Shown: in pieces, positions 14,277 through 39,995 of the stretch
Numbering within the stretch: position 1 is the stretch's first letter
Layout of the letters: each line of letters starts with the position of its first letter
Source: an uncultured Pseudomonadales bacterium
GTDB lineage: Bacteria > Patescibacteriota > Microgenomatia > UBA1400 > CAYXSR01
Reading direction: 5' to 3'
Assembly (NCBI GenBank): GCA_964430265.1
Contig: CAYSEI010000001.1
Span: 154,786-218,785, forward strand
DNA: 64,000 bases
Position numbers and translations under genes: made by a program
The notes under the pieces: model-generated
Seen by the model: the letters and a program-made list of their open reading frames with translations, nothing else
Database searches by the model: none
What the model was told of the DNA's origin: nothing

Positions 14277-14279
14277 TTT

Positions 14280-15071: not shown

Positions 15072-15219
15072 TTAAGTTGTTTGCTATATAATTTTTTTCT
15101 AATTTATTAGCTTAAATATAACATATTTAAATAAAATTGCATAGTTAATATGTATGTTTAAATTATTTCTGCTTCTTCTATTTCATTAAATTTAAAAGTT
15201 TGTGTTATAGTATTAATAT

Positions 15220-15750: not shown

Positions 15751-15798
15751 TAAAAATTAAAGATTTCAAGATTTGAAGTAATATTTTAAAGCCAGTTC

Positions 15799-22139: not shown

Positions 22140-22169
22140 TTGACATTATACTAGGATACATGTAAAAAT
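22140..22169 (+). promoter_or_regulatory. Sigma70-like promoter for the pil operon (TTGACA-17-TGTAAAAAT)
   Basis: TTGACA at 22140-22145, a 17-nt spacer, then an extended -10 at 22161-22169. ATG of pilB at 22177. Confidence 0.45.
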
Positions 22170-22176
22170 TAAACCA

Positions 22177-23907
22177 ATGTCTGCCCAATTAAAACAATCC
22201 CAGAAAAGCCTCGCAGGAATTCTTTTTGAGAAAGAATTTATTACCGATAGAATAAAAGAAAAAATTGAGCTGGAAAGTGTTAATACAGGCAAAAACCAAG
22301 AAGAGATAATTAGTGAAAATAACTATGTTTCGAAGCGTGAATTGGCCCAAGCAAAAGCTGAACTTTATGATATTCCCTTTGTTAATCTTAGTGAAACAAG
22401 TCTTTCTCCGGAAGCATTAAACTACATTCCGGAAGTTGTAGCTAGACGCTATGATTGTTTTCCTTACCAAATAGATAAGGATAGTAATACTATCCATGTT
22501 GCAATGGAAGATCCGTTTGATATGGTTGCGGTAGAGTTTATTGAGCAGAAAACCGGCATGAATATCCAAACCGGGATTGCTGTTGAGGAGGACGTTAAAG
22601 AAGCGATCAACCGCTATTATTCCCAAAGCCTGTCTTCTGAAGTTACCGAAGCGTTAAAAGAAACAGGACGTGCTGGTGGTGGAACAAGGAAAAAAGTAAT
22701 AGAAGCCAGGGATATGGGAAAAATTATTAAGGAAGCTCCAATTGCAAAGATTGTCAGTACTTTGCTTGATTTTGCAATTAAAGCAAAAGCTTCTGATATC
22801 CATATTGAACCGCAGGAAGAAAGAACACGTATTCGTTATCGTATTGACGGTATTATGCATGAAAAACTGGTTTTACCTAAAGGGGTTCATGATGCTGTTG
22901 TTTCCCGTATTAAAATTTTAGGAGGAATGAAGATTGATGAAAAGAGAATTCCCCAGGACGGCAGGTTCAGTTTTAGATCAGACGGTGAAGAAGTTGACTT
23001 GCGTGTGTCCTCGCTGCCGACTGTACATGGAGAAAAAATTGTAATGCGTTTATTAAAACAAAGTGGAAGAGTTTTAAGTTTGTCGGAATTGGGTCTTAGA
23101 GGAAAAGGCTTAAAAGACTTAAGGGATGCACTTTCCGTGTCTCACGGAATTATTTTAGTAACCGGTCCTACTGGTTCTGGTAAAACAACAACTTTGTATT
23201 CTTCTTTAACAAAACTAAATACTCCTAAAGTTAATATTATTACTCTAGAAGATCCGGTTGAGTATGAGATTGATGGTGCAAATCAGGTGCAAGTTAATCC
23301 GCAGGCAGGTTTAACTTTTGCTTCCGGGCTGAGGTCATTCTTGCGTCAAGACCCGGATATTATCATGGTAGGAGAAATCAGAGATGAAGAAACAGCAGAA
23401 CTAGCGATTCATGCTGCTTTGACAGGTCACGTGGTCTTCTCTACTCTGCACACAAATAGTGCTGCAGGAGCGCTTCCCAGAATGATGGATATGGGTTCCG
23501 AAGCATATTTACTGGCTTCTAGTATGGTATCGGTAGTTGGACAGCGTGTTGTCAGGCGTATTTGTGAAAATTGTAAGGAAGAATATGAACCAAAGGAAGA
23601 AGTTAAACAGGATATAAGAAATGTTTTGGGGGAATACTTTCCTAAAGACAAAGAAAAGATTACTTTGACAAGAGGAAAAAAATGTACAGCCTGCAATGAA
23701 ACCGGATACAAAGGTAGAATTGGTATTTTTGAAGTTTTGCCTATTGATCCAAACATAAGAAAGTTGATTTTGGAACAGGCAGCTACGTCTGCAATCGAAA
23801 AACAAGCCCGGGAAAACGGCATGCTAACAATGCTTCAAGACGGATATTTAAGGTGTCTTGAAGGAACAACAACGATTGAAGAAGTACTCAGAGTTTCTAA
23901 AGGTTAA
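22177..23907 (+). CDS. pilB: Type IV pilus assembly ATPase PilB (GspE family)
   Basis: N-terminal GSPII_E_N domain, Walker A GPTGSGKTTTLYS, Asp/His boxes, and the tetracysteine CENCKEEYEP...CTACNETGYKGRIGIFEVL. Confidence 0.9.
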   Translation: MSAQLKQSQKSLAGILFEKEFITDRIKEKIELESVNTGKNQEEIISENNYVSKRELAQAKAELYDIPFVNLSETSLSPEALNYIPEVVARRYDCFPYQIDKDSNTIHVAMEDPFDMVAVEFIEQKTGMNIQTGIAVEEDVKEAINRYYSQSLSSEVTEALKETGRAGGGTRKKVIEARDMGKIIKEAPIAKIVSTLLDFAIKAKASDIHIEPQEERTRIRYRIDGIMHEKLVLPKGVHDAVVSRIKILGGMKIDEKRIPQDGRFSFRSDGEEVDLRVSSLPTVHGEKIVMRLLKQSGRVLSLSELGLRGKGLKDLRDALSVSHGIILVTGPTGSGKTTTLYSSLTKLNTPKVNIITLEDPVEYEIDGANQVQVNPQAGLTFASGLRSFLRQDPDIIMVGEIRDEETAELAIHAALTGHVVFSTLHTNSAAGALPRMMDMGSEAYLLASSMVSVVGQRVVRRICENCKEEYEPKEEVKQDIRNVLGEYFPKDKEKITLTRGKKCTACNETGYKGRIGIFEVLPIDPNIRKLILEQAATSAIEKQARENGMLTMLQDGYLRCLEGTTTIEEVLRVSKG

Positions 23908-23923
23908 GAAAGGAATAATTGCT

Positions 23924-24979
23924 ATGGAAATAAACGAACTATTAAAAAGAACAGTTGAAACTGGATCCTCAGACCTGCATATACTTGTCGGTTATCCTCC
24001 TTATTTACGGATAAACGGAGAATTAAAGCCTTTAGGAGAAAAAAACATAACGGAAGAAGAAAGCAAAGACTTAATTTTGGGTTTATTGAATAATCAACAA
24101 AAAGACTTGTATCTGGCAAATAAGGAACTTGATTTTTCTCTTGACTTTGAAAAAAAGGCTCGTTTCAGAATTAATGCATATTTTGAAAAAGGAGAGATGG
24201 CAGCAGCCTTAAGATTATTGCCGCATAGGATAAGGACGATAAAGGAACTTAATCTTCCTGATATTTGCCTGGAATTAAGTTCTTTAAAAAGCGGCTTTAT
24301 ACTTGTAACCGGACCAACAGGGCACGGTAAATCAACAACATTAGCAGCAATAGTGGAAGAAATCAATCAAAAAAGATCAGAACACATTGTTACTATTGAA
24401 GATCCGATTGAATATGTTTACCAAGGTAAGAAAAGCATAATTTCCCAAAGGGAAATGAATCAGGATACCCATTCATGGGAAGTTGCTTTAAGATCTGTTC
24501 TTAGAGAAGATCCTGATGTTGTTTTAGTTGGTGAAATGAGGGATTACGAAACAATTGCGGCGGCACTTACTGTTGCAGAAACAGGCCACCTTGTTCTGGC
24601 AACTTTACATACAAATAGTGCTTCACAAACATTAGACAGAATTGTTGATGTTTTTCCGGAAGAAAAGCAAGAACAGGTAAGACTGCAATTGTCCAGTACA
24701 ATACAAGGGATTATCTCCCAAAGATTGATTCCGGCAACAAATGGAGGGCGTGTACCAGCAACAGAAATAATTTTGGGAACATCAGCTGTTAAAACGAATA
24801 TAAGGGAAGGGAAAACGCACCTTATTGATAATATTATTCAAACATCGGAAGCAATTGGCATGATGTCTTTGGAAAGAAGTTTGTCCAATTGGGTAAATCA
24901 AGGAATAATAACATATGAAACTGCCAGAAAATGGGCATTACACAGGGACCATTTAGACAGATTTTTAGAAAAAAAGTAA
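23924..24979 (+). CDS. pilT: Twitching-motility retraction ATPase PilT
   Basis: MEINELLKRTVETGSSDLHILVGYPP, Walker A GPTGHGKSTTLAAIV, and the AIRNLIREGKTHQ-like block (NIREGKTHLIDNIIQTS). Start reassigned to ATG 23924. Confidence 0.9.
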   Translation: MEINELLKRTVETGSSDLHILVGYPPYLRINGELKPLGEKNITEEESKDLILGLLNNQQKDLYLANKELDFSLDFEKKARFRINAYFEKGEMAAALRLLPHRIRTIKELNLPDICLELSSLKSGFILVTGPTGHGKSTTLAAIVEEINQKRSEHIVTIEDPIEYVYQGKKSIISQREMNQDTHSWEVALRSVLREDPDVVLVGEMRDYETIAAALTVAETGHLVLATLHTNSASQTLDRIVDVFPEEKQEQVRLQLSSTIQGIISQRLIPATNGGRVPATEIILGTSAVKTNIREGKTHLIDNIIQTSEAIGMMSLERSLSNWVNQGIITYETARKWALHRDHLDRFLEKK

Positions 24980-24983
24980 AAAT

Positions 24984-26186
24984 ATGCGACAATTTAATTA
25001 CCGAGCCAGGAATCAACAAGGAGAAGAAGTTAAAGGGGTTATTGAAACTACAAATGAAAAACACGCAGCTAAAATTTTACGTGACAGAAACTATATTGTT
25101 GTTTCTTTAAAAGAAAAAAAAGGGTTTACGTTATTTGGAAATATAAATTTTCTAAACAAAGTTACTAGTAAAGATGTAACTGTATTTACACGGCAATTAG
25201 GTGTGATGATCAGGACGGGTCTGACATTAACAGATGCCTTAAACATTCTTAAAAGAGATGCTAAGCCTCAACTTTCTGCAGTTTTGGAGAAGGTTACTGA
25301 AGAGATTGAAGCGGGCAGTTCTTTTCATGAAGCATTAAAAAATCATCAGGATATTTTTTCCAAGACCTATCTTGCGTTAGTACGTAGTGGAGAAAAATCC
25401 GGAAAATTGGATGAGGTTCTGATACGCTTGGCAGACAACTTGGAAAAAAAAGAGGAATTCAAAGGAAAGGTCAAAGGTGCTTTGATTTATCCTTCTATTG
25501 TTATTATTGGTATGATAGCTGTTGCTTTTATTATGATGGTTTTTGTAGTTCCCAAGCTGACAAGTATGTATGAAGACTTCGGGGTTAGTCTACCCTTGCC
25601 TACTCGTATATTGATTGGTTTATCAACTTTTATGAGCAAGTTTTGGTATCTTTTTATTCTTATGGTCGGAGGATTAATTTTCTTTTTCAACCGATGGAAG
25701 AAAACGGAAGAAGGGAGGGCTTTTATTGATAAATGGCTTTTGGAAATACCAATTATTGGAAACGTTATTAAAAAATCAATATTAACTCAGCTTTCCCAAA
25801 CAATGTCAATGCTTGTTGAAGCAGGTGTACCTATTATTGATGTTTTAGAAATTGTTGCAGAAACTTCCAACAATTATTTATTTGAAAAATCAATAAAAGA
25901 AGTTGCCGAGAGACTGGAAAAAGGTGTACCTTTAGCATCCACTTTCAGTAGCTATTTGATCTATCCTCCCCTATTTGTACAAATGGTTTCAGTTGGTGAA
26001 GAAACTGGAAAACTAGGTGAAGTTTTAGAAAAAGTTTCCTATCATTTTGAGATGGAAACAGAGACAGCTGTAAAAGGATTGACAAGCGCGATGGAACCTC
26101 TTATGATGGTAGTATTAGGTATCGGGGTGGGATTTTTGGTAATATCAATAATAACACCGATTTATCAATTGACAAGCTCATTTTAA
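24984..26186 (+). CDS. pilC: Type IV pilus platform protein PilC (GspF family)
   Basis: Two T2SF repeats. N-terminal MRQFNYRARNQQGEEVKGVIE is typical of PilC. Three TM segments. Confidence 0.9.
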   Translation: MRQFNYRARNQQGEEVKGVIETTNEKHAAKILRDRNYIVVSLKEKKGFTLFGNINFLNKVTSKDVTVFTRQLGVMIRTGLTLTDALNILKRDAKPQLSAVLEKVTEEIEAGSSFHEALKNHQDIFSKTYLALVRSGEKSGKLDEVLIRLADNLEKKEEFKGKVKGALIYPSIVIIGMIAVAFIMMVFVVPKLTSMYEDFGVSLPLPTRILIGLSTFMSKFWYLFILMVGGLIFFFNRWKKTEEGRAFIDKWLLEIPIIGNVIKKSILTQLSQTMSMLVEAGVPIIDVLEIVAETSNNYLFEKSIKEVAERLEKGVPLASTFSSYLIYPPLFVQMVSVGEETGKLGEVLEKVSYHFEMETETAVKGLTSAMEPLMMVVLGIGVGFLVISIITPIYQLTSSF

Positions 26187-26204
26187 TACAAAAAGGAGGT
26201 GAAA

Positions 26205-26696
26205 ATGAACAAAAAAGGTTTTACTTTAATCGAACTTTTAATTGTTATCGCGCTATTGGGAGTTTTAGCTGTAGGACTTTTGGCAACAATTGACCCTTTT
26301 GAACAGTTGAAAAAAGGAAGAGATACATCAACAAGAAACATGGTAGAAGAGTTTTATAACGCAGCACTGAGATATTATGCTATTAATAATGAATTTCCTT
26401 GGGAGGGAACAGCACAGAGTGGGGAAGATTTATCAGATGGAGATATGTATACTTACGTTTCAATGATTTATGATATGGGAGAGTTAAAAGAAGCGTTTTT
26501 AGATGCATCTGGTTTGGACCGTGTGTATGTAACTTCGACAGATTGTGGTGGAGTGGCTTGTGACGATTTAACTGTTTGTTTCTCTCCACAATCAAAAGCA
26601 TTTAGAGGAGATAATAATACTCAGTTCACTGTTTCAGGAGCCGAGGAGAGTCCCTGTGGACCAACTGTAGCTACTTGCTACTGGTGCATTAGATAA
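26205..26696 (+). CDS. Type IV (pre)pilin, candidate major pilin
   Basis: Class III signal MNKKGFTLIELLIVIALLGVLAV (G-1, F+1, E+5). Strong RBS GGAGGTG 5 nt upstream. C-terminal Cys pair CYWC. First pilin gene after pilC. Confidence 0.85.
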   Translation: MNKKGFTLIELLIVIALLGVLAVGLLATIDPFEQLKKGRDTSTRNMVEEFYNAALRYYAINNEFPWEGTAQSGEDLSDGDMYTYVSMIYDMGELKEAFLDASGLDRVYVTSTDCGGVACDDLTVCFSPQSKAFRGDNNTQFTVSGAEESPCGPTVATCYWCIR

Positions 26697-26721
26697 GAAT
26701 TTTTGAGTCTTAAAGTTTAAT

Positions 26722-28728
26722 TTGATGATTAAAGAGTTTAGAAAAAAGCTTTATGAAGAGAAAGGGTCCATAGGACTCTTTTTCTTTCTGTTTACTGTTT
26801 TACTCTATTTTCAGATTAAATCTGTTTATGGAGGTGATTCTGGAGACTATTTATCTGCAGCTGCTGTTTGGGGTGTTCCCCATCAGCCGGGATATCCATT
26901 ATTTACTTTTTTAGCTGCTTTAATTTATCGTTTGGTTCCTCTTTCAACACCAGCATGGAGGGTTGCTTTGCTTTCTACAATTCCGGCTGCACTAACAGGA
27001 ATGTTTTTATACAAGTTATTAGCGATTTACTTTAGGAAAATAGTTGCCTTAATCAGCAGTTTATCTTTTGTTTTTTTGTATCCGGTTTGGCTTTATTCGG
27101 AAATAGTAGAAGTTTTCAGTCTGAACAACTTTTTTACTTTGTCTTTGATTTATTTTACTTTTAAGTTTCAAATAACAAAAAAAGAAAGATTTTTTAACCT
27201 TTTTTTAGTTTTTTTAGGTTTTGCAGTTGCGCATCATCATATTATAGTTTTTATATTTCCAGGACTTTTTTGGATATGGAAGAAACATTTTAAAAAATTA
27301 TTTAGTTTAAAAAAATTGTTGTTTTTGATTCCGGGGCTTTTGTTTTATGCATATTTACCGATTGCAGCAAGCTTTAATCCCCCAATCAACTGGGGTGGGC
27401 CGTCAAGTTTAAAAAGATTTCTAGAAACAATTTTCAGGGTAGGTTTTGGTACATTTCAGGCAAACCAATTTATTATTAAAACATTATGGAACCGTATTGT
27501 TCTAGTTCTGGTTTTCTTTCAATATGTATTTTTTGACTTTGGTATCAGTGGTTTATTTTTTGTTTTGCTTGGCATCATTGGTTATTTTTCTATTAAAACG
27601 AAAGAACTAAAAACTTTCTGGCGTTTTTCAATGCTAACACTTGGTTTTTATGTCTTTTTTATTTTTTATTCCAGTTTTCCTTTGTATTCAAATTTTAATG
27701 TAGCGACTTTTGAAAGGTTTTTAATTTCTCCCTATCTTTTTTTAATCATATTAATGGCTTTTGGTTTGCATGTTGTTTTAAAGAAAGTTATAAAGCTAAC
27801 AAGTGGATTAAATAAAAAAAGTGTGATTTTAGTACTTTTTCAAGTAATTCTTTTTTCTTTTCTTCCTTTGTCAATTTTTCTCAGCAACTATCGCAAAATA
27901 TCTATCTTGAAAAATGATTTTACCGCTGAAAAGTTTTCCAAAGATATTTTGGATTCTGCTCCAGAAGGTTCAGTTGTTTTACTCATGTCTGATACTACTT
28001 GGTTTAATACTTCTTATGTTTATTATGCTTTGGAATATAGGAGGCATGAAATAAAATACATTAATCCTTTTATTCTTAACGCCCCTTATTACCAAAAGTA
28101 TTTTAGCAAAGATTTTCCTGATTTAAAATTTGCCAAGAAAGAAGACGTGCAAGAAAATATGCAGTATTTGATACGTGAGAATCCTAATGTTTTTATTATT
28201 CCCGACAATGAAGTAGAAGGATTTAAATTAATTCCCAACGGATTGCTCTTTAAATACTATCCAGAAGATAATCTTCCTTCTGTTGATGAAGTTATTGCTA
28301 TAAACGATAATCTTTGGCAGCAATATAATGATCCATTGGAAGGCAGTTTAGGAAAGTACAAGAATTTATTTTTATCTGATGTTTTAAGACATTACTGGGG
28401 CAATAGTATGGAGATGGCAGAATATTTAGTTGAAAACAAAAAATATATAGAAGCAGAAAAATATTTGAATAAAGCAGTTTACTATGGGGTGAAAGACTCT
28501 CAAATCAATTTACTTTTTGGAAGAGTTTATTTAAATACTGACCGTTGTAAAAAAGCAGAAGAGGCTTTTCTTAAAGCAAAAGAGGAACTTTCGGACAATC
28601 CCTTTCCTGATGCTTATCTTAGACAGGTTTATATCAATTGTTATCAGGATGAGAAAAAGGCAGAAGAGTTTTTAGATTCTTGTTTTGATAAAGAGAAGGA
28701 ACAACAAATACCATTGGAAGATAAATAA
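26722..28728 (+). CDS. DUF2723/PMT-like (GT-C fold) polytopic membrane glycosyltransferase-like protein with C-terminal TPR region
   Basis: N-terminal YGGDSGDYLSAAAVWGVPHQPGYPLF signature as in DUF2723/TMEM260-type proteins. At least 10 TM segments. The C-terminal ~150 aa are soluble with TPR-like helices. Confidence 0.55.
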   Translation: MMIKEFRKKLYEEKGSIGLFFFLFTVLLYFQIKSVYGGDSGDYLSAAAVWGVPHQPGYPLFTFLAALIYRLVPLSTPAWRVALLSTIPAALTGMFLYKLLAIYFRKIVALISSLSFVFLYPVWLYSEIVEVFSLNNFFTLSLIYFTFKFQITKKERFFNLFLVFLGFAVAHHHIIVFIFPGLFWIWKKHFKKLFSLKKLLFLIPGLLFYAYLPIAASFNPPINWGGPSSLKRFLETIFRVGFGTFQANQFIIKTLWNRIVLVLVFFQYVFFDFGISGLFFVLLGIIGYFSIKTKELKTFWRFSMLTLGFYVFFIFYSSFPLYSNFNVATFERFLISPYLFLIILMAFGLHVVLKKVIKLTSGLNKKSVILVLFQVILFSFLPLSIFLSNYRKISILKNDFTAEKFSKDILDSAPEGSVVLLMSDTTWFNTSYVYYALEYRRHEIKYINPFILNAPYYQKYFSKDFPDLKFAKKEDVQENMQYLIRENPNVFIIPDNEVEGFKLIPNGLLFKYYPEDNLPSVDEVIAINDNLWQQYNDPLEGSLGKYKNLFLSDVLRHYWGNSMEMAEYLVENKKYIEAEKYLNKAVYYGVKDSQINLLFGRVYLNTDRCKKAEEAFLKAKEELSDNPFPDAYLRQVYINCYQDEKKAEEFLDSCFDKEKEQQIPLEDK

Positions 28729-30856
28729 TTAACAAGAAATGGCCAGAAAGGCTAATCAATAGTCCTTTTCTGAAAACAGCTGGTTTAAATCTCAGCATAA
28801 TTTTATGATTACCAGGCGGTATTACAACTCCCATGCTATTGATATTGGTATTTAATATTTCAACTTCTTCATTATCGATAAACCCTTTCCATCCGGGATA
28901 ATTAAACTGTTTGATTACTGCTAATGTTTTATTTTGTGTTTTTGTTTCAAAAGAAATCAGACCGTCTTGAACAATTAGATTATTAATTTTGTTGGACTGA
29001 TCTTCATTTTGTGAATCAAAATTGATTTCCCTTTCTGTCAAAGCAGAATTTTCAAAAGAAAAATCTTTCTGATTGACGTATTTTACATAATCGGTAAAAG
29101 TCGAGATGTTTATGGAATCATTGACCAAATTAACCATTGGCAGGCTTTTATTAATTCGATAAACATTTGTTCCGCTTTCACTTTGATAGACCATTTCAAT
29201 CTCTAGGTTAGACGCCACTTTTAATGGAGTAATAAAATACTCTACACTGTTTTGTTGGAGAGCTTTTGTTGCATTTGGGGTTAATATTAGACTTTCTTCT
29301 TTAACATTAATATTATTTATAATGAAACTGCGTGAGAGAAGATTTCTAATCAATGGTAGTGCGTTTTCAACATTTGCTTGATTAATGTTGTAGTACAAAT
29401 TTGCGTAATTGATAGGGTCTTCCCGTTTACGGTAATAGAATTCCGGGTTCTGCCATCCCTTGGAAGAAAAGTGATCAAACCAGTCATTTTCAAATCCCAA
29501 AGAAAAAACTTTTGGATTATCTTTTTTTTCTTGCAGAAAACGTACTAATTCGGGTTTTTCAAACCATTTTTTATGGGGTTCAATTAAATGATAACTATTG
29601 AAGAAACGATACAAGTCCAAAAAACTCAAAACGATCAATAAATAAATAGTTATCTTAACAACTTTTTTTTGTCTGTAGTTTTTATCTATGAAATCTATTC
29701 CGAACATGGCAAAAAGCGCTAAAAAGACACCAGAAACTAGCAAAAAACGTGAAGGAACCCTAAATAAATTAAAAGGCCAGAATTCATAAAAGAAATATAG
29801 TGGAGAATGTTTTCCAAGTACTAAGAGAAATGAAAGGAAAATCCCCAAAGTTAGTCCTTTTTTAACTTTGCTTCTTTGTTTTTGCAGAAGGAAAAAGCCC
29901 ATTATAAACAATGGAGTTATTCCCAGGTAAGCGTTATTCTCCCAAAATATACGGACATGTGGCGTTTTAGTTACGTAAGTTCCTGTTTTTGGGCTTCCCA
30001 ATATATAAGGGTTAAGAAAAAGTAGGAAATCTTTTGGATGATAGCTGTATTGCGTAACTTCGGAAAATTTTAATCCCTTTTTTCTCAAGCTCAGATTTAA
30101 GTATTTCCGCGAAGGTAAAAGTTGTACTGAAGCTAATACTAATGCAAAAAGTAAAGAAGCAATCAGAAAAACAAAATTTATTACTAATTGTTTCTTTTTT
30201 TGCTTTGAAAGATAACAGTTGAATAAAAAGAAAATAAAGATGCAAAAAACTGAAATTAAGACTATTTGTTGACTACCGGTAAATATTTGTTGGCTGACTA
30301 CAAAGCTTAGAATCGGCCAAAAACGCGGATTTTTGAGGCTTTTTTTTACCAAGAATAATTCTAGCGTTAATAGGCTTGCTGCATGAAAAATATCCAAATG
30401 TGTTAAATGACTGATAAAGAACCCATTAAAGCTGAAAACAATGCTAAATAAAATAGCAGCCGAGTCCTTGACTTTAAATTCTTTTGCCAACAGGTATGAA
30501 AAAAGAAGGTTGATAAAAGTATTTACAAGATAGAAAATATTTATTGCAATTCCAAAAGGAAATATTATAAAGGTAAGAAAATTAATTAAGTTAAAAGTGC
30601 CGATTTGTCCTTGTGCAAGCATAGGTAATCCGTTATTTAAATTCTTTGACCACAAGGGTAGTTCAAAATTTTTTATTTTCTGCGAATAAAAATGTTTTAA
30701 GGGCAAATAACCGTGATAAATATCAGAAGACTTAAAATCGGGTGTTACAATTGTTCTTAATTCTGGGAAAAATAGTTTGTTAAAAAATAATAGATCAACT
30801 ATTAGAAGAAACAAAACAATCAATAGTGTTTTTCGTATTTTTTTGTTCAAGAACAT
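28634..30856 (-). CDS. YfhO-like large polytopic membrane protein (glycosylation-associated)
   Basis: 740 aa with many TM segments and a C-terminal beta-rich extracytoplasmic region. The N-terminal region resembles the YfhO family. Confidence 0.45.
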   Translation of the reverse strand: MFLNKKIRKTLLIVLFLLIVDLLFFNKLFFPELRTIVTPDFKSSDIYHGYLPLKHFYSQKIKNFELPLWSKNLNNGLPMLAQGQIGTFNLINFLTFIIFPFGIAINIFYLVNTFINLLFSYLLAKEFKVKDSAAILFSIVFSFNGFFISHLTHLDIFHAASLLTLELFLVKKSLKNPRFWPILSFVVSQQIFTGSQQIVLISVFCIFIFFLFNCYLSKQKKKQLVINFVFLIASLLFALVLASVQLLPSRKYLNLSLRKKGLKFSEVTQYSYHPKDFLLFLNPYILGSPKTGTYVTKTPHVRIFWENNAYLGITPLFIMGFFLLQKQRSKVKKGLTLGIFLSFLLVLGKHSPLYFFYEFWPFNLFRVPSRFLLVSGVFLALFAMFGIDFIDKNYRQKKVVKITIYLLIVLSFLDLYRFFNSYHLIEPHKKWFEKPELVRFLQEKKDNPKVFSLGFENDWFDHFSSKGWQNPEFYYRKREDPINYANLYYNINQANVENALPLIRNLLSRSFIINNINVKEESLILTPNATKALQQNSVEYFITPLKVASNLEIEMVYQSESGTNVYRINKSLPMVNLVNDSINISTFTDYVKYVNQKDFSFENSALTEREINFDSQNEDQSNKINNLIVQDGLISFETKTQNKTLAVIKQFNYPGWKGFIDNEEVEILNTNINSMGVVIPPGNHKIMLRFKPAVFRKGLLISLSGHFLLIIYLPMVFVVPSLYQNKNLKTLLPFSHPDNN

Positions 30857-31558
30857 TTAAGTACCTACTTTCCAGTATGTTCGTACTAGTAGCTGCTTTG
30901 GTAGAAACTGCTCAGCTTTGTAAAGTAATTTTATAAAAAACAAAGGCAGAAAACGATATAATAGCGGCGAAAAAAAGAAATGCTTTTCAGTGGTGTCAAT
31001 TTTTAATGATAGTTCTTTTAATAATATTTTTATTTCTTTGTCGGAATAGACGTGTATTTTTTGTGCACAGTCTCTTTTTATTAAATCTAAAAGTTTCTTG
31101 GGGCTTCGATTATGGGTTTCAAATAAAATATATCCATTTTCCTTTAGTGCTCTTTTTGATTCCTCCAGCATTTTTTTAACTTTTTTTAATGGATAATGAT
31201 GAAATATTCTTAGATGAATAACATAGTCAAATTCATTTTTGTCAAAGGGAAGATTATCAAGGTTAGCTTTAACTAGTTTTTTATATTTCTTAGTTTTATC
31301 AGCTTGTTTGAGCATTTTTGTTGAAGTATCAACTCCTAATATTTCAACTCCGGCTTTGCCTATTTTTCCGAGGCGCCCAGTTCCACAGGGTGCATCTAGT
31401 AATTTTATATTTTTCTTTTTGTTTATATTTTTTATAAAAAAAGAAAGTTCAATATTGTTAACAAAATTACCGGATTGTCCGCCAAAACGTAAATTATCAT
31501 ATTTTTTAACAACTGTTTCTTGATCATAGTAATTTATTTTCAATGATTTTTTAGGCAT
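30857..31558 (-). CDS. Class I SAM-dependent methyltransferase
   Basis: Motif I LLDAPCGTGRLG and the post-I acidic region ILGVD. Confidence 0.7.
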   Translation of the reverse strand: MPKKSLKINYYDQETVVKKYDNLRFGGQSGNFVNNIELSFFIKNINKKKNIKLLDAPCGTGRLGKIGKAGVEILGVDTSTKMLKQADKTKKYKKLVKANLDNLPFDKNEFDYVIHLRIFHHYPLKKVKKMLEESKRALKENGYILFETHNRSPKKLLDLIKRDCAQKIHVYSDKEIKILLKELSLKIDTTEKHFFFSPLLYRFLPLFFIKLLYKAEQFLPKQLLVRTYWKVGT

Positions 31559-32679: not shown

Positions 32680-32772
32680 TTTTTTACAATTGGTGAATTT
32701 ATAAACAGTACTATATTTTATCCAATCTATTCTTTTATTGTAAGGGGGTTTATGATAAATTGATTTTAAATT

Positions 32773-33630
32773 ATGTTTGCATATATTATCATTTTTATCT
32801 TTGGATTATGTGTCGGCAGCTTTTTAAACGTGATTATTTATCGCGAAACTGAAGGTGAAGCGGAACAGATGGAGGAAAAAGAAAAAAAAGGTTGGAAAAG
32901 ATTTCTACCTGCCTGGTCCTATGGTAGGTCGTACTGTGATCATTGTAAAAAGGAGATATCCTGGTATGACAATATTCCCCTACTCTCCTATATTTTATTA
33001 CGAGGCAAGTGTAGGCATTGCAACAAAAAAATCAGTTGGCAATACCCTTTGGTGGAGTTTCTGACAGGTATCCAATTTGTCTGGATATATTTTTTGGTTA
33101 AAAACAATCTTGCATTTTTTTCCCAGTTTGAAGGGTTTTACAGTTTTGTTAGTCTGATTTTATGGCTATTACTCGGAGGATTTTTTATTGCAATTTTTGT
33201 TGCGGATGCACGCTACCAGATAATACCCGACGGTGCAGTTTTTGGCGGTATTTTTATTACGTTGTTAAAAATTCTGGTTGATTACAGATATACTGGAATG
33301 ATTGATTTGACTGTTTTTCCCTCTGCCCTACTCTCAAGTTTGTTTTTCCTGTTTTTAATTATAATTACAAAGGGAAAAGGAATGGGTTTTGGAGACGTAA
33401 AACTGGTCTTTATTTTGGGACTTATTTTAGGCTATCCGCGGATTATTGTTGCTTTATTTTTTGCATTCTTGACAGGTGCTTTTATAGGTGTCATACTGAT
33501 GTTACTTGGCGATAGAAAGTTTAAAAGCAAGATAGCTTTTGGTCCCTTTTTAATATTGGGATTTTTAATCGCATTTATATGGGGAAGCAAATTATGGACA
33601 ATTTTTCTACAAGGAGAAGGAGGATGGTAA
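32773..33630 (+). CDS. pilD: Prepilin peptidase / N-methyltransferase PilD (A24 family)
   Basis: N-terminal GLCVGSFLNVIIYR, the Zn tetracysteine CDHCKKEISWYDNIPLLSYILLRGKCRHCNKKISWQYP, and the catalytic Asp boxes GMGFGDVKL. Confidence 0.9.
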   Translation: MFAYIIIFIFGLCVGSFLNVIIYRETEGEAEQMEEKEKKGWKRFLPAWSYGRSYCDHCKKEISWYDNIPLLSYILLRGKCRHCNKKISWQYPLVEFLTGIQFVWIYFLVKNNLAFFSQFEGFYSFVSLILWLLLGGFFIAIFVADARYQIIPDGAVFGGIFITLLKILVDYRYTGMIDLTVFPSALLSSLFFLFLIIITKGKGMGFGDVKLVFILGLILGYPRIIVALFFAFLTGAFIGVILMLLGDRKFKSKIAFGPFLILGFLIAFIWGSKLWTIFLQGEGGW

Positions 33631-34145
33631 GCAAAAAAAAAGGCTTTACGCTTATAGAAATAATTGTGGCCATGATGATTTTAGCAATTTTAAGTGTTGG
33701 ATTGCTGGGAAACTTTTTTAATACACCTCCTAAGGCCAGAGATGCCAAAAGAAAATCAGCTTTAAGGCAAGTTCTTAATTCTCTGGAAATCTATTACAGT
33801 GATAATGGACAATATCCTTATCAAGTAAGCAACCAAATTTCTTGTGATGGAACAAATGCAATTGGATGGGGAGCAACATTTGTGTGTGATAATGAAACAT
33901 ACATGAGCAAACTTCCAGATGATCCTTCCTCAAATCAAACATACTATTATGAAGTAATTGGTACAAACAGACAAGGTTTTAGAATTTATGCAAGGTTGGA
34001 AAATACAGATGACAAATGCTTTGATTCTGCTGATGAATGTTGTGCAGACGGATTTGATGGGACTTCTTGCGGGACCGGAGTGGAATGCAACTATGTTATT
34101 ACTAGTCCAAATGAAACACCAGTGGGGTTACTATGTACACCATAA
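33624..34145 (+). CDS. Prepilin-type N-terminal cleavage/methylation domain protein (pilin 2)
   Basis: MVSKKKGFTLIEIIVAMMILAIL. GGAGG RBS at 33618-33622. Cys-rich C-terminus. Confidence 0.8.
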   Translation: MVSKKKGFTLIEIIVAMMILAILSVGLLGNFFNTPPKARDAKRKSALRQVLNSLEIYYSDNGQYPYQVSNQISCDGTNAIGWGATFVCDNETYMSKLPDDPSSNQTYYYEVIGTNRQGFRIYARLENTDDKCFDSADECCADGFDGTSCGTGVECNYVITSPNETPVGLLCTP

Positions 34146-34657
34146 ATATAAACAAAAAGGGTTTTACTTTAATTGAAATTTTAGTTGCAATTGCAATAAT
34201 CGGAATTTTGGCAACAATGCTTCTTGCTAATTTTCAGGGAATTCGTGCCCGTGCCAGGGATGCACAAAGAAAAAGGGATTTAAATGAATTAAGAACTGCA
34301 CTCAGACTTTTTTACAATGATAACCAGTCATATCCCTTAAATGTTCCTAATCGTGACAGTGGAGGTAGTGAAGAAGATGAACAAAAAATTACGTGTCTAA
34401 CATCAGGCACTGCTGGTACAGGAGATGCTTTGGATTGGGGAGATGCTTTTGAATGCGGTGGAACCACATATATGCAGGAGCTTCCTGAAGACCCATTAGA
34501 GGGACATATAAGATATTATTATGAAGTGGGTAACAATGGTGACAGTTTTTCACTTTGGGCATGTTTAGAAAACCAGGCGGATCCGGATGCTGTTGGATGC
34601 CATGGTTATATGTTTGCATGTAGTAGTGGTGATTGTTTTAAAGTTTCTGCAAATTAA
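34133..34657 (+). CDS. Prepilin-type protein (pilin 3)
   Basis: NKKGFTLIEILVAIAIIGILATML. Confidence 0.8.
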   Translation: MYTININKKGFTLIEILVAIAIIGILATMLLANFQGIRARARDAQRKRDLNELRTALRLFYNDNQSYPLNVPNRDSGGSEEDEQKITCLTSGTAGTGDALDWGDAFECGGTTYMQELPEDPLEGHIRYYYEVGNNGDSFSLWACLENQADPDAVGCHGYMFACSSGDCFKVSAN

Positions 34658-34666
34658 GGAGGAAAA

Positions 34667-35071
34667 ATGAAAAAAATTAAAAAGGGATTTACCCTGCTTG
34701 AACTACTGGTGGTAATTTCAATTATTGGAATATTAATAGCAGTTGGTACAGTAGCCTACTCTACTGCGCAAAAAAAAGGAAGGGATGCAAAAAGAAAAGG
34801 TGATCTTAGATCAATCCAAAATGCTATGGAAGAATGTTATGCTCTTGACACTTCATACCCTACTTCTGTACCTGCTGTGGGGAATTCATTAACGTGTGGA
34901 GGAGAAACTATAATTGAATCTTTCCCAGAAGATCCAAAAGGAGGAAGCTGTTCTTATCATTATACTCTTTCAGCAGACAGTTATACTATTTGGGCAGACT
35001 TAGAAGGTTCATCAGCGGGATGCGATGGAAATTATGACTCTGATGATTTCAGAATCACAAACTTACAATAA
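34667..35071 (+). CDS. Prepilin-type protein (pilin 4)
   Basis: MKKIKKGFTLLELLVVISIIGILIAV. AGGAGG RBS. Confidence 0.8.
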   Translation: MKKIKKGFTLLELLVVISIIGILIAVGTVAYSTAQKKGRDAKRKGDLRSIQNAMEECYALDTSYPTSVPAVGNSLTCGGETIIESFPEDPKGGSCSYHYTLSADSYTIWADLEGSSAGCDGNYDSDDFRITNLQ

Positions 35072-35080
35072 GGAGAAAAA

Positions 35081-35494
35081 ATGGAAAAAAAAGGATTTAC
35101 TTTTATAGAAATTTTGGTGGTTACTGTTTTAATAGGAGTTTTAGCAGCTATTGGTATAGTGTCTTTTTCAGGAATAAATAAAAAAGCACGCGACGGTAAA
35201 AGAAAATCAGATGTAGAACAAATCCGCTCTGCTCTGGAAATGTATAGGTCTGATAATGGATACTACCCTACTACGGGATCACTTGTTAGTGGAATAAGTC
35301 CAGGAACTGATCCATACATAAATGATATGCCTGAAACTCCGGAAACTGGTGATTGTACGACTGGATCAAACAGTTATGAAAATTGTTATGAAGCTTCTCC
35401 TACAGGATGCGATAATACTTCAACTTATTGTTATGGTTATGAAATCGGAATTCCTCTGGAAGTCGGGTCAAGCTATGTTAAACAAAATCCTTAA
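35081..35494 (+). CDS. Prepilin-type protein (pilin 5)
   Basis: MEKKGFTFIEILVVTVLIGVLAAI. AAGGAG RBS. Confidence 0.8.
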   Translation: MEKKGFTFIEILVVTVLIGVLAAIGIVSFSGINKKARDGKRKSDVEQIRSALEMYRSDNGYYPTTGSLVSGISPGTDPYINDMPETPETGDCTTGSNSYENCYEASPTGCDNTSTYCYGYEIGIPLEVGSSYVKQNP

Positions 35495-35984
35495 GCATAA
35501 AAAAACGGGATTTACTTTAATTGAAGTTTTAATTGTAGTTTTAATTATTGGTGTTTTAACTTCAATAGGTGTTGCCTCTTACAATTCTTTTAATGAAAGA
35601 AAAAAAGTTGAAGTTGCAGCGGATAACTTTACAAAAGTGTTGCGTTCTATGCAAAGTAAAGCTGTAAACGGGCAAAAAGATTGTTCTGTTTGTGGTGGAG
35701 CAGACAGTGATTGTACAACAGATGATGGTGACGAGCGCTTGTCGGGTTGGTTTGTTAGTCATGTAAATGCACAACAGTATACTACTCACGGTGAATGCGG
35801 GGCAAGTAGTTTTGCTTCCAGGACGTATAATTTGGAAAATGATGTTAGTGTAACCGATTTTGGACAAATCCAATTTTTGCCTTTGGGAGATACAGCTCTT
35901 GGAAGCGGGCAAACAGCAGTTTTTATAAACTCCCGAGGCTATTCAGTTGAGGTGCAAATTGATGAAAACGGAAATGTTGAATAA
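35475..35984 (+). CDS. Prepilin-type protein (pilin 6)
   Basis: MLNKILKHKKTGFTLIEVLIVVLIIGVLTS. Start reassigned to ATG 35475. The ORF-track N-terminal extension is read-through of the overlap with pilin 5. Confidence 0.75.
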   Translation: MLNKILKHKKTGFTLIEVLIVVLIIGVLTSIGVASYNSFNERKKVEVAADNFTKVLRSMQSKAVNGQKDCSVCGGADSDCTTDDGDERLSGWFVSHVNAQQYTTHGECGASSFASRTYNLENDVSVTDFGQIQFLPLGDTALGSGQTAVFINSRGYSVEVQIDENGNVE

Positions 35985-36435
35985 ATCATATAAAAAAGGT
36001 CAAACAATGTTGGAAATAGTTTTTGTTATTGGGGCTACGGTTGTAACTTTAGTTGCATTAACAAGTGCAGTTGTACTCAGTTTAAGAAATATAGACCATG
36101 CCAAACGCTCGTCTCAAGCTAATAAAATTGTACAAAAGAAACTTGAAGCTGCTAGGATCTATAGAGATCAACAAGGATTTGACTGGGCCACTTCTGGAAT
36201 AAGCTGCAGGGATAATATAACAAGCTCTTCTACAGGATCAGAAATGTGTGCTGGCTCGTGTGATAATTGCAGTGTTTGGGAGCCAATAGCTTCAACTGGA
36301 TTTAATCAGCAGATTGAAATAGAATCTGTAGTTGATGAAAAGAAAATAATAACGGTCCGTGTAGCATGGGGAGAAAATAATAAACACATTGTTGATTCCC
36401 AAACAATAATCAGCAAATGGGAGAAACATGAATAA
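35974..36435 (+). CDS. Pseudopilin/minor pilin (pilin 7)
   Basis: MLNKSYKKGQTMLEIVFVIGATVVTLVAL has the G-x-x-x-x-E prepilin cleavage pattern. Same MLNK start style as pilin 6. Confidence 0.65.
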   Translation: MLNKSYKKGQTMLEIVFVIGATVVTLVALTSAVVLSLRNIDHAKRSSQANKIVQKKLEAARIYRDQQGFDWATSGISCRDNITSSSTGSEMCAGSCDNCSVWEPIASTGFNQQIEIESVVDEKKIITVRVAWGENNKHIVDSQTIISKWEKHE

Positions 36436-36892
36436 AAAGGCTTTTTCATTGATAGAGTTGCTTATTTCCGTAGCAGTTTTGGGAGTTATAATCACATTAA
36501 TTGTGGGAGTGTTTTTTGCCAATGTTAGAGGTCAAAGAAGAGTGAATTCCCAATCTTACATTAAAGACAGCGGTGATTACGCACTATTGATTTTAAAAAA
36601 GAAAATACGTAATGCTAAGGAATTGGAGACGTGTAATTCAAGCGAAGTAAGGATTTTAAATACTGAAGGTGAAGAAACAGTTTTTACATGTAGTGGGAAT
36701 ATTCTATATTATGACGGTGACACACTGATCCCCAGTGATTTGCAGTTAGACAGTGATGACTGTTTTACTTGTTATACTTCGGAGAGTCCGCCTGTTGTAG
36801 AAGTTTCTTTTACTCTTGAAAATAATAAAACTGGAATACTTGAAGGAGCGGAACAAGAGTTTGGAGCAACAATGTCATTAAGAACATATTAA
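36428..36892 (+). CDS. Pseudopilin/minor pilin (pilin 8)
   Basis: MNKKAFSLIELLISVAVLGVIITL (Ala at -1). Confidence 0.7.
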   Translation: MNKKAFSLIELLISVAVLGVIITLIVGVFFANVRGQRRVNSQSYIKDSGDYALLILKKKIRNAKELETCNSSEVRILNTEGEETVFTCSGNILYYDGDTLIPSDLQLDSDDCFTCYTSESPPVVEVSFTLENNKTGILEGAEQEFGATMSLRTY

Positions 36893-36937
36893 AAAAAGAA
36901 TTGACTTTTATACAAACTTTTATTTATTATAGTAATA

Positions 36938-37690
36938 ATGAACTTGAAGGAAAATAAATCAGGGCAAATAGCAATGATTGCTTTATTGGTAATGGTAGTA
37001 GTACTTACCGTAGGCTTGGCAGTTATCTCCCAAACAGTTACTGATATCTCAATTTCCGAGGATGAAAAAGAAGCAATACGTGCTTTTTCCGCAGCAGAAG
37101 CAGGAATAGAAGAAATTCTAAAAGAAACTAATATTCAATCTAATGCATATACAATTGATGATACTGACGTAAATGTTGAAGTAGCAGAAATTTCCGATGA
37201 TTTTACCCAAACTTTGGATAAAGGGGAAACAATGACAGTCTTCTGGAATGCTGTAGCAGGTCCGGAAGATTTGACTGTTAACTGGGTGGATGGAACTAAA
37301 GATAATGAACAAGATGATTTGGCAACTTTAGCAATATCAATTTTCCATAGTAATGGAGATGTAACAAGAACTGGATGGTCTCCTAATAATGCGCGTGCGG
37401 GACAAGAAGGATTTACAGAAGTTTCTGCGGGCGGTGCCGACGAATTTCTAAGAGGAAACACAATTGGTCTTACTACAAATGACGAATTTATAAGAATCAA
37501 AGCATTAGTTGATGAAACAACAGTTCGTGTAAGCAATGCTAACCTTCCTAAACAAGCATTTAATTTAACTTCAACTGCAGTTACTCCACAAGAAAAAGCA
37601 AGCCGAGTAGTTGTTAAAAAAACGCTTCCGGTTATGTTACCTCTATTTGATTATGTATTGTTTTCAAAAGGTAATATTACCAAGAGTTAA
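36938..37690 (+). CDS. PilX-like minor pilin (pilin 9)
   Basis: N-terminal SGQIAMIALLVMVVVLTVGLAVIS resembles the PilX_N domain. 250 aa. Confidence 0.55.
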   Translation: MNLKENKSGQIAMIALLVMVVVLTVGLAVISQTVTDISISEDEKEAIRAFSAAEAGIEEILKETNIQSNAYTIDDTDVNVEVAEISDDFTQTLDKGETMTVFWNAVAGPEDLTVNWVDGTKDNEQDDLATLAISIFHSNGDVTRTGWSPNNARAGQEGFTEVSAGGADEFLRGNTIGLTTNDEFIRIKALVDETTVRVSNANLPKQAFNLTSTAVTPQEKASRVVVKKTLPVMLPLFDYVLFSKGNITKS

Positions 37691-37698
37691 GGAGACAG

Positions 37699-38715
37699 AT
37701 GCCTGCCCACGTAGGATTAGATATCGGTGCGAAATCCATTAAATTAGTAGAAGTCCAAAAAAAATCCAACGAATTAGTTTTGGAAACTTGGGGTAAAATT
37801 GCTAACCCCGGAAATATTTATTCCACTGAAGAAGAAGAAATTGAGAAAATTGTTGAGGCAATAAAAAAAATCGTTAATGAAACTGAAGTAAATAGTAATA
37901 AAGTTGCTGTTTCCTTGTCTGAAACTTCAGCATTTTCACAAGTAATTGAGATTCCTCCCCTCTCCCCTCGTGAACTATCAACTGCAATTAAGTTTGAAGC
38001 TGAACAATACATACCAATTCCTATGGACAAGGTTCATTTGGATTATTCAATAATACATACTCCTCCCAAAGGATCAGAAAATAAAAAAATGAAAGTTTTG
38101 CTTGTTGCTGCTAAAAAAACTGCAGTAAATACAACAATCAAATTAGTAGAAAAAGCAGGCTTAGCTCCAATTATGATGGAAACAGAGATGTTAGCACTTT
38201 CAAGAATAATAGATAATTATTATCCGGATAAAAGTATATTAATGATTGATTTGGGTTACAAATCAACGGATATTTCAATAATCAGTCACGGAAAAATACA
38301 CTTTTTACGTACTGTTAAAACCGGTGGAGAAGCTTTTACACGGGCTATTGCGCAAAATTTACGGATGAGCTTTTCTCAAGCACAGCAATATAAGGAGACT
38401 TATGGTTTGGATAAAACTCAACTGGAAGGTAAAATCTTTCAAGCACTTATGCCTGTATTTGATGTAGTTACAAAAGGAATAAAAAGAAGCTTAATATATT
38501 TTCAAAAACAAAGTGGTGTTGAAAAAGTTACTCTTGGAGTTTTATCAGGAGGAGGTGCTAGGATGAGGGGGCTTCCAAATTACTTGACCGGGGAGCTTGA
38601 CCTTGAAATGACAGTTCTTGATCCTTTTGCGAATTTTACTGAGAATTCAGTTTTGGAACAACTAAGTACTCGTGAAGGATTTTCTGTTGCTGTTGGATTA
38701 GCACTAAAGCAATAA
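37699..38715 (+). CDS. pilM: Type IV pilus assembly protein PilM (actin-like ATPase fold)
   Basis: N-terminal VGLDIGAKSIKLVEV and the actin/FtsA-like phosphate loops. Confidence 0.85.
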   Translation: MPAHVGLDIGAKSIKLVEVQKKSNELVLETWGKIANPGNIYSTEEEEIEKIVEAIKKIVNETEVNSNKVAVSLSETSAFSQVIEIPPLSPRELSTAIKFEAEQYIPIPMDKVHLDYSIIHTPPKGSENKKMKVLLVAAKKTAVNTTIKLVEKAGLAPIMMETEMLALSRIIDNYYPDKSILMIDLGYKSTDISIISHGKIHFLRTVKTGGEAFTRAIAQNLRMSFSQAQQYKETYGLDKTQLEGKIFQALMPVFDVVTKGIKRSLIYFQKQSGVEKVTLGVLSGGGARMRGLPNYLTGELDLEMTVLDPFANFTENSVLEQLSTREGFSVAVGLALKQ

Positions 38716-38716
38716 A

Positions 38717-39283
38717 ATGAAAAATAATGAAATAGATTTTCTAAAAGGTAAATCTGAAGAGATTCGAAATAAAAAACGTCGTAGCAGACTTATTAAAACT
38801 TTTTCTTTTGCTATGATTATTTTGTATTTAATTGTAACCGGTGCCACATTTGGAATGTATTATCTAAAAAAGAATAATATTAATGCAGTAGATGCACAAA
38901 TCAGTTCAATTACAGATGAAATAAGTGATATGCAAACTAAGGAAACTAAGCAGATTTTACTGGCTAATAAGCTAGAAACAATTGCACCTTTATTAGACTC
39001 AAAAAAAGAACACAAATTATTAATAGGTACAGTATTTGAAATTGTACCTGAAAACGTATCTGTCAGTAATTTTCGCATAACCGAAGGAAATGTTTTGGAA
39101 TTTAGTATTAGTTCGCAAGATTTTGAAGCGATTAAACAATTTTTCTTTAATCTTAAATTAGAGAAATATCCTTTAACAATAGAAGAAGCAAAAATTGAAA
39201 ATTTCACTTTTAACAAAGAAAACAATTACTCAATGGGTATAAAGCTGAAAGTTAATCAATTGGAAAGAAATAATGAAGACTGA
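38717..39283 (+). CDS. pilN: PilN-like bitopic assembly protein
   Basis: Single N-terminal TM segment, then coiled-coil. Immediately follows pilM with a 1-nt gap. Confidence 0.6.
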   Translation: MKNNEIDFLKGKSEEIRNKKRRSRLIKTFSFAMIILYLIVTGATFGMYYLKKNNINAVDAQISSITDEISDMQTKETKQILLANKLETIAPLLDSKKEHKLLIGTVFEIVPENVSVSNFRITEGNVLEFSISSQDFEAIKQFFFNLKLEKYPLTIEEAKIENFTFNKENNYSMGIKLKVNQLERNNED

Positions 39284-39995
39284 AATGTCACCTGAGGACA
39301 GAGAAAAACTAATACCTTTAGTTACAGCTGTTTTTATATTCCTGGGGGGGGTTTTCATACTAAAACCATTTATTGCCAAAACAATTGATCTAAATGATAA
39401 GCTAAAAGACGAAAAAGTCAAACTTTCTAAATTAAAGAAGAAACTTGAAGTACTTGAAAATCTTAATGAAGAACAATTAGATGAAAATGTTAAAAAGGTA
39501 GAAACAATTTTACCATCGCAAAAACCGGTTATTACAGTATTAAACTCATTGTTTAATCTGGCCAATCAACAAGACGTAATTTTAGGAGAAATTTCTTTTA
39601 GTCCTGGAGAAATAAAGCAGGAAGAAACAAAAGAGGAAAAGAAAAAAGTAAATAAAGAAGGTGAACAATTAGCAGTAAATTTTAATATTACTGGAAACTT
39701 AGAAGATATTACAGATTTTCTGGACAAACTAGAACTGCAAACACCTTTATCCAGGCTTGAAGGATTTGGTTTAAATGTTGAAAACAAACAAGAAACAACA
39801 ACGGCACTAAACTTAAAAGTATTCTACCTTCCCCTACCTGAGACATTGGGCAAGATTAGTGATCCTTTGCCAGTTCTGAATAAAAAAGAACAAGATGTGC
39901 TTGCTGAACTGGAAAATTTTGAAGATTTTACTGCCGACGAAACAGTAGTCATAGAAACAAGCGGTGGAAAGTCAAATCCGTTTAAGCTTAACTAA
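39273..39995 (+). CDS. pilO: PilO-like bitopic assembly protein
   Basis: Single TM segment and a coiled-coil KLKDEKVKLSKLKKKLEVLENL. Overlaps the pilN stop. Confidence 0.55.
   Translation: MKTEMSPEDREKLIPLVTAVFIFLGGVFILKPFIAKTIDLNDKLKDEKVKLSKLKKKLEVLENLNEEQLDENVKKVETILPSQKPVITVLNSLFNLANQQDVILGEISFSPGEIKQEETKEEKKKVNKEGEQLAVNFNITGNLEDITDFLDKLELQTPLSRLEGFGLNVENKQETTTALNLKVFYLPLPETLGKISDPLPVLNKKEQDVLAELENFEDFTADETVVIETSGGKSNPFKLN

Follow-up and report, generated by a model that had tools for sequence, protein, structure and literature searches.

A secretin-less type IV pilus locus of a Microgenomates-type bacterium, with a candidate pilin-glycosylation cassette beside the major pilin gene

In the 64-kb stretch of contig CAYSEI010000001.1 analyzed here (“the window”, from whose first letter all positions are counted), the forward strand from 22177 to 39995 carries pilB, pilT, pilC, a pilin gene (pilA), pilD, an array of eight additional pilin-like genes and pilM-pilN-pilO, the run being split between pilA and pilD by four non-pilus genes (26725-32679) that take up about 6 kb, one third of the interval. 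Together the pilus genes very probably specify a complete type IVa-like pilus machine in a Microgenomates-type member of the Patescibacteria with a single-membrane envelope; the inserted genes, headed by a GT-C glycosyltransferase directly 3' of pilA, are tentatively proposed to glycosylate the pilin. Secretin-less, single-locus type IV pili (T4P) are already known for Microgenomates and Saccharibacteria, and the pilus locus itself adds little: the value for follow-up lies in the GT-C/YfhO cassette beside pilA and in the way it is tied to a conserved type of pilin. An initial annotation, made from the sequence, had treated the whole interval as a pilus locus, which holds for the pilus genes; the stretch 26725-32679 had been overlooked, and consists instead of glycosylation genes.

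The GT-C protein of the cassette (Table 1) belongs to a TMEM260/DUF2723-like family and matches PMT_2 weakly. It has a conserved YGGDSGD...PHxPGYP motif, with D39, G41 and D42 invariant and the acidic motif in the first loop. The YfhO match of the neighboring polytopic enzyme covers mainly the C-terminal part of that product, and the best NCBIfam similarity of the GT4 enzyme, a weak one, is to PglH-type and exopolysaccharide (EPS)-type GT4 enzymes. The GT-C and YfhO-like genes are convergent, their 3' ends overlapping by 95 nt (28634-28728). Convergent overlaps of 49-107 nt between the same two genes are found in six relatives (L008, L016, L032, L037, L162, L163), an unusual conservation; there is no such overlap in L002.

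Recurrence of the cassette can be judged from 80 loci gathered via PilD, one genome per species. Among the 58 of these PilD-centered loci that have both pilC and pilD, a GT-C gene lies between pilA and pilD, directly 3' of pilA, in 11, and YfhO is present too in 8 of the 11. Median pilA identity to the window is 50.7% for GT-C-positive and 35.6% for GT-C-negative loci (Mann-Whitney p=2e-5, phylogeny-uncorrected), whereas PilD identity to the window is 41.9% and 41.7%, respectively. Metagenomes were also searched with a GT-C profile, blind to pilus genes (a scan with the single GT-C sequence found no homologue in them; the profile version succeeded): 13 of the 15 top-scoring homologues, whose matches span about 590-660 of the 668 query residues, adjoin pilus genes, and pilA is still visible upstream of GT-C in 10 of these 13. 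When homologues of pilA were looked up instead (n=3), a full GT-C came next in two cases, with YfhO after it; in the third, from the closest relative, UBA1400, pilA is followed, across a 200-nt gap, by a truncated GT-C homologue (46% identical) that is cut off by the contig end. YfhO co-occurs with GT-C in several of the metagenome loci, as well as in L162 (a Pfam YfhO match) and L163 (a weak one), and the cassette methyltransferase has a homologue in the L081 cassette and counterpart methyltransferases in L162. Recurrence, the blind search, the pilA look-ups and the association with pilin type together tie the cassette to the pilus locus and argue against chance.

Other inserts at the same pilA-pilD site encode GT-C (PMT_2) or GT2 enzymes. 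In UBA1400 (GCA_002305125.1; L001 1025-4521, L161 7691-8809), two GT2-like open reading frames (ORFs) and a sulfatase-family ORF precede pilD. They stand where the window has the YfhO-like gene, the methyltransferase and the GT4 gene: the content of the cassette turns over quickly, even with respect to the closest relative. The major pilin is at least 49% identical across aligned homologues, several candidate phyla included, and a pilin-linked GT-C would explain variable surfaces on such a conserved protein.

Glycosylation of the pilin is the candidate role put forward for the cassette, and judged nearly an even call, because the pattern resembles that of TfpW, a pilin-type-specific gene 3' of pilA in P. 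aeruginosa. In its more specific form the proposal, which is offered tentatively, is that the TMEM260/DUF2723-like GT-C subfamily, usually with a convergent YfhO-like GT-C, may carry out pilin-type-specific O-glycosylation, with the pilA-pilD gap as a hot-spot. The main rival is a general envelope module (teichoic-acid-like, S-layer or protein O-mannosylation) that is unrelated to pili and merely occupies a permissive pilA-pilD gap, a possibility that has to be taken seriously because YfhO-family enzymes are known from the glycosylation of lipoteichoic and wall teichoic acids in Firmicutes (PMC5836110); the pilin side has its own precedent in TfpW, a pilin-specific accessory glycosyltransferase 3' of pilA (bioRxiv 10.1101/2020.04.19.049825). 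More distant DUF2723/TMEM260-like homologues of the GT-C enzyme have no pilus linkage, as might be expected of a general module, but the nearest subfamily is almost always beside pilA or inside a pilus locus. Likewise, 47 of the 58 related loci are without GT-C, yet where it is present it follows the type of pilin and not overall divergence; and although every cassette gene except GT-C is on the opposite strand, differing GT-C families and GT2 enzymes recur at this exact site. The 47 loci and the teichoic acid precedent also count directly against pilin glycosylation, as does the choice of the pilin as substrate, which is a deduction. If the pilin is nevertheless the target, variable sugar cassettes could diversify or mask the conserved major pilin, for example toward phages or in host recognition, and the cassette would offer both a first candidate, at the level of enzymes, for pilin glycosylation in the Candidate Phyla Radiation (CPR) and a role in bacteria for the TMEM260 family. 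Pili of CPR bacteria are thought to mediate host-cell contact, and the pilin-linked GT-C subfamily supplies a concrete gene. In the literature searched, the sole work joining pilin glycosylation and Patescibacteria predicts O-glycosylation sites, in pilins of the Saccharibacteria member TM7x, from sequence only and names no enzyme (PMC11623550).

For the pilus itself, the nearest relatives of PilD are in Patescibacteria/Microgenomates-type metagenome-assembled genomes (MAGs; UBA1400, Levy-, Gottesman-, Shapiro- and Roizmanbacteria), and most of the 80 loci have the order holB(-)|pilB-pilT-pilC-pilA-(cassette)-pilD-pilins-pilM-N-O ... rnc(-), a recurrence in Patescibacteria that shows both the locus and its chromosomal position to be conserved within this part of the CPR. 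These relatives and the shared order, together with PilT, PilM, PilN and PilO and the single-locus T4P cluster without pilQ in the closed genome of Microgenomates bacterium Ch65 (PMC7143001), support the monoderm, CPR-style pilus of the initial annotation. Several points weigh against a type IVa-like machine in a single membrane: PilB scores equally on the NCBIfam GspE and PilB models (582 and 576 bits; PilB cutoff 676), below both equivalog cutoffs, so that it can be assigned at family level only; most of the pilins match type II secretion system (T2SS) pseudopilin models or Com models at least as well as they match T4P models; the subclass labels of minor pilins I and J derive from gene order alone; PilN is marginal, with a best profile match at E=0.008 and I-D-F in the window protein where its family has I-N-L; and the secretin scan covers the 64-kb window, a secretin elsewhere in the genome being compatible with the data. 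One alternative would be a non-retractile T2SS- or Com-type pseudopilus serving secretion or DNA uptake, with no surface type IVa pilus: the pilins score on GspG, GspH, ComGC, ComGD, ComGE and ComGF models, and PilC is best on GspF. These T2SS and Com scores are sub-threshold, however (e.g., GspG 45.5 bits for G2, GspH 39.6 and ComGD 37.3 bits for H), GspC, GspD, GspL and GspM are not among the genes, and the same gene set in Saccharibacteria gives T4P filaments and twitching experimentally (PMC11623550); with a PilT-family retraction ATPase above its curated cutoff and PilM, PilN and PilO encoded, the pseudopilus was rejected as very unlikely. A diderm type IVa pilus with pilQ and pilP located elsewhere is scarcely credible. 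The scan does leave room for it, having covered 64 kb of a 405-kb contig, but within the window the ORFs scanned give no match to the Secretin model, the other ORFs are unlike a secretin by eye, and pilP and pilQ are absent 3' of pilO, where a KH-domain gene, rpsP and rnc come directly next both here and in relatives. The absence of pilQ and pilP noted in the initial annotation is thereby borne out for the window; for the genome as a whole, it follows from kinship with Patescibacteria and from the closed Ch65 genome, which has the same locus and no pilQ (PMC7143001). On these three grounds (the genes after pilO, the kinship and the pilQ-less closed relative) the diderm alternative was rejected.

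Table 1. Features of the pilus locus and of the cassette within it
Feature	Position	Strand	Basis and remarks
pilB, extension ATPase, GspE/PilB family	22177-23907	+	Pfam T2SSE 446 bits, MshEN 68 bits
pilT, retraction ATPase	23924-24979	+	T2SSE; NCBIfam TIGR01420 (pilT_fam) 446 bits, cutoff 319
pilC, platform protein	24984-26186	+	Pfam T2SSF, two stretches, 209 bits
Promoter-like site in pilC 3' end, about 95 nt upstream of pilA	26079-26107	+	TTGACA-17-TATGAT
pilA, major pilin candidate	26205-26696	+	Leader MNKKG-FTLIE (cut after G), 158-aa mature protein, 6 Cys; N_methyl
GT-C glycosyltransferase, TMEM260/DUF2723-like, TPR-like C-terminal domain	26725-28728	+	PF11028 69.8 bits, cutoff 24.2
Hairpin, 15 bp + T-run, possible attenuator	26755-26787	+	Terminator scan; 59 nt past pilA stop
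YfhO-like polytopic glycosyltransferase	28634-30856	-	Pfam YfhO PF09586 35.1 bits, cutoff 28.5
S-adenosylmethionine-dependent methyltransferase	30857-31558	-	Pfam Methyltransf_11, Methyltransf_25
GT4-family glycosyltransferase	31540-32679	-	Pfam Glycos_transf_1 72.8 bits
pilD, prepilin peptidase	32773-33630	+	A24_N_bact 110 bits, Peptidase_A24 47 bits
Pilin G1, GspG-like	33624-34145	+	Leader MVSKKKG-FTLIE (cut after G), 8 Cys; N_methyl 34.8 bits; T2SSG 22.1 bits, cutoff 21; 41% identity to G2
Pilin G2, GspG-like	34133-34657	+	6 Cys; N_methyl 38.1 bits; sub-threshold GspG 45.5 bits
Pilin G3, GspG-like	34667-35071	+	4 Cys; N_methyl 34 bits; 39% identity to G4
Pilin G4, GspG-like	35081-35494	+	4 Cys; N_methyl 24.5 bits, T2SSG 23.9 bits
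Minor pilin H, GspH/FimU/ComGD-like (tentative)	35475-35984	+	N_methyl 30.8 bits; GspH 21.8 bits, cutoff 21; NCBIfam GspH and ComGD sub-threshold
Minor pilin I (tentative)	35974-36435	+	Leader MLNKSYKKG-QTMLE (cut after G); orthologue family
Minor pilin J (tentative)	36428-36892	+	Leader MNKKA-FSLIE (Ala at -1); N_methyl 26.2 bits
Minor pilin K, PilX_N-type (tentative)	36938-37690	+	No Glu+5, no Cys; PilX_N 19.6 bits, cutoff 25.5
pilM	37699-38715	+	Pfam PilM_2 199 bits; NCBIfam pilM TIGR01175 224 bits, cutoff 133
pilN candidate	38717-39283	+	Family profile, top PDB match M. xanthus PilN, E=0.008
pilO, start uncertain	39273-39995	+	Family profile vs. M. xanthus PilO (3jc8_O), E=1e-11

All of the pilus genes named in the initial annotation lie where it had placed them on the forward strand, and their identities, order, conservation and family memberships are matters of direct observation, PilN and PilO being treated separately below. 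The translations carry a Walker A GPTGSGKTT and a tetracysteine CENC...CTAC in PilB, an AVKTNIRE motif resembling AIRNLIRE in PilT, and the GxGD motif of PilD as GFGD, with a two-domain match of the bifunctional peptidase type. Neighboring genes overlap by 7-20 nt, so that the “ATGA-type overlaps” described earlier are not literally such. Housekeeping genes flank the locus: gyrA, gyrB and holB upstream, and the KH-domain gene, rpsP, rnc, nusB and recG downstream. Many MAGs with a CPR-type locus of this kind (L002, L004, L009 and others) bear the title “uncultured Pseudomonadales” or “Gammaproteobacteria”, with “Pacearchaeota” or “Bathyarchaeia” in a few cases; these titles are evidently mislabelled.

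As single sequences, the products of pilN and pilO have no Pfam or NCBIfam matches, and both were assigned through families whose members are the two ORFs after pilM, taken from 30-31 syntenic loci. With the profile of the PilO family, P. aeruginosa PilO (2rjz, E=0.004) is found in addition to the M. xanthus protein, and on this profile evidence the identity of PilO, put forward earlier as a candidate, can be considered established; the annotated start at 39273 gives a product absent from the protein collection. For PilN, the other early candidate, the top profile match makes the identity probable. An I-N-L motif near the N-terminus is almost invariant in its family. In the Thermus PilM-PilN pair, an N-terminal INLL-type motif of PilN binds PilM.

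All nine pilin-like proteins are credible prepilins: pilA and six of the eight array genes (seven of nine overall) are above the N_methyl cutoff, and the two others, I and K, which fail the N_methyl and PilX_N models individually, are supported by orthologue families taken from syntenic loci. Alone, I has no HMM match of any kind; in its orthologues Gly-1 and Glu+5 are invariant (G-QTLIE), and 14 of 23 match N_methyl. The K family has an invariant GQ, an AEAG motif and no Glu+5, with PilX_N matched by 17 of 35 members. J has weak ComGE and ComGF matches, and in most of its orthologues position -1 is Gly. Cysteines in the mature proteins number, in gene order, 6, 8, 6, 4, 4, 4, 4, 4 and 0: in all but the last the number is even, from 4 to 8, and consistent with disulfide-bonded globular domains.

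By sequence, the nine appear to comprise a single conserved major pilin, four GspG-like proteins and an H/I/J/K-like set. G1-G4 (33624-35494) are taken as tandem paralogues because they are GspG-like and 32-47% identical to one another. The last four genes are consecutive, the first GspH-like (marginally, 21.8 against a cutoff of 21) and the last without Glu+5 and with a putative extra domain, and they look like an H/I/J/K-type priming and tip set, equivalent to FimU/PilV/PilW/PilX. Profile searches of the PDB gave nothing informative for K and I and the generic pilin N-terminal helix only for H and J, and the subclass labels are therefore tentative. The initial annotation had argued from the large number of minor pilins to a complex tip, which is not specifically supported: in a uniform motif count of Gly-1 prepilins between pilC and pilM, relatives have 2-11 (mode 6) and the window 7 (J and K fall outside this count), making nine pilins ordinary to slightly high, and four of the eight are GspG-like paralogues, not obvious tip parts.

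Expression signals around pilA invite a further suggestion. The strong ribosome-binding site (RBS) reported earlier is present as AAGGAGGTG, 3 nt 5' of the ATG at 26205, a start also given by the NCBI gene call; RBS-type sites similar to it precede G1, G3, G4 and pilM. The promoter-like site in the 3' end of pilC (11/12) is the top sigma-70-like match in the 20 kb scanned, and the hairpin downstream of pilA has a fold energy of -28.8 kcal/mol (z = -2.1); in many relatives pilA is directly followed by a terminator-like, GC-rich hairpin and a T-run. In the window the hairpin is inside the 5' coding part of the GT-C gene; its equivalent is intergenic in L016 and L037. Taken together, these signals suggest separate, high expression of pilA from its own promoter, with attenuation behind it. 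This is put no more strongly because the numbers of promoter and terminator sites in the locus show no excess over shuffled expectation.

How might such a pilus work? Roles of individual pilins, the pattern of transcription and the pilin as target of the cassette we infer from the arrangement described above. In all nine pilin-like proteins, PilD would cut off the short basic leader behind Gly-1 or, in one case, Ala-1, and PilB, on a PilC platform held by a PilM-PilN-PilO alignment complex, would polymerize the major pilin PilA; with depolymerization by PilT, the fibre could then both lengthen and retract. A likely priming and tip set would be formed by the H, I, J and K pilins, K resembling GspK and PilX in its lack of Glu+5 and bearing an extra beta-sandwich, and G1-G4 may be alternative or co-polymerizing subunits. 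No secretin would be needed, since no outer membrane is proposed. By analogy with TfpW of P. aeruginosa, the cassette enzymes may decorate the pilin at the outer face of the membrane. Roles in host-cell attachment and DNA uptake, also raised in the initial annotation, would be extrapolations from Saccharibacteria.

Several features elsewhere in the window are of separate interest. A T-box leader (RF00230, 106.9 bits) at 47229-47520 (-) lies directly upstream of a 342-aa ORF (46179-47207, -) for which a Pfam scan gives zero matches, and thus stands at the head of an operon with a first gene of unassigned function; after it come a peptidase-like ORF (45094-46182, -; M20 family by eye) and tyrS (43883-45073, -). 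From 10000 to 16000, the GC content is low (0.29-0.31, vs. about 0.35 elsewhere in the window). This stretch contains a tyrosine-recombinase-like ORF (10897-11886), two HIT-like ORFs and a 513-aa ORF (12196-13737, -) with zero Pfam matches, and may represent an integrated element. Across the whole window, GC and AT skew track the coding strand closely, which recalls the disparity in strand composition that has been reported from a Microgenomates genome (PMC7143001).

Comparison with known systems places the locus among the CPR pili. The monoderm T4P of Streptococcus sanguinis (PDB 8pfb, 7o5y) have no close sequence relationship to it, and their minor pilins carry different modular domains. With the diderm type IVa pili of M. 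xanthus and P. aeruginosa (PDB 3jc8) it shares PilB, PilT, PilC, PilD and PilM, PilN and PilO by profile, and a major pilin with a four-member minor-pilin set; unlike them, the window is without PilP, PilQ, TsaP and PilY1, and its pilins score better on pseudopilin models. Ch65, of the same superphylum, likewise has PilA, minor pilins, PilD, PilB, PilT, PilC and PilM in one secretin-less locus, read as serving motility, adhesion, DNA uptake or host contact (PMC7143001); PilN, PilO, an H/I/J/K-type set and a glycosylation cassette are undescribed there, the comparison being by description only. Nanosynbacter lyticus TM7x has a functional T4P with pilB/T/C/M/N/O/D that has been studied experimentally (PMC11623550). 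Its T4P-1 resembles the present locus in combining pilC, pilB, pilT, pilM/N/O, pilD and several pilins in one CPR locus, in having a small, highly expressed major pilin along with larger minor pilins, some of them T2SS pseudopilin-like, and in one pilin whose signal peptide is non-canonical and which has an additional domain; it differs in having five pilins and a second T4P system beside it, where the window has nine pilins and a GT-C cassette beside pilA. For the cassette, the precedent is TfpW of P. aeruginosa group IV strains, a GT-C arabinosyltransferase that is specific to the pilin and encoded 3' of pilA (bioRxiv 10.1101/2020.04.19.049825). The window enzyme is from another Pfam family (TMEM260/DUF2723-like, with TPR) and has a YfhO-like partner, and the two are likened by position, not sequence: each is a polytopic GT-C-type enzyme whose gene comes immediately downstream of that for the major pilin, and the presence of each is tied to the type of pilin.

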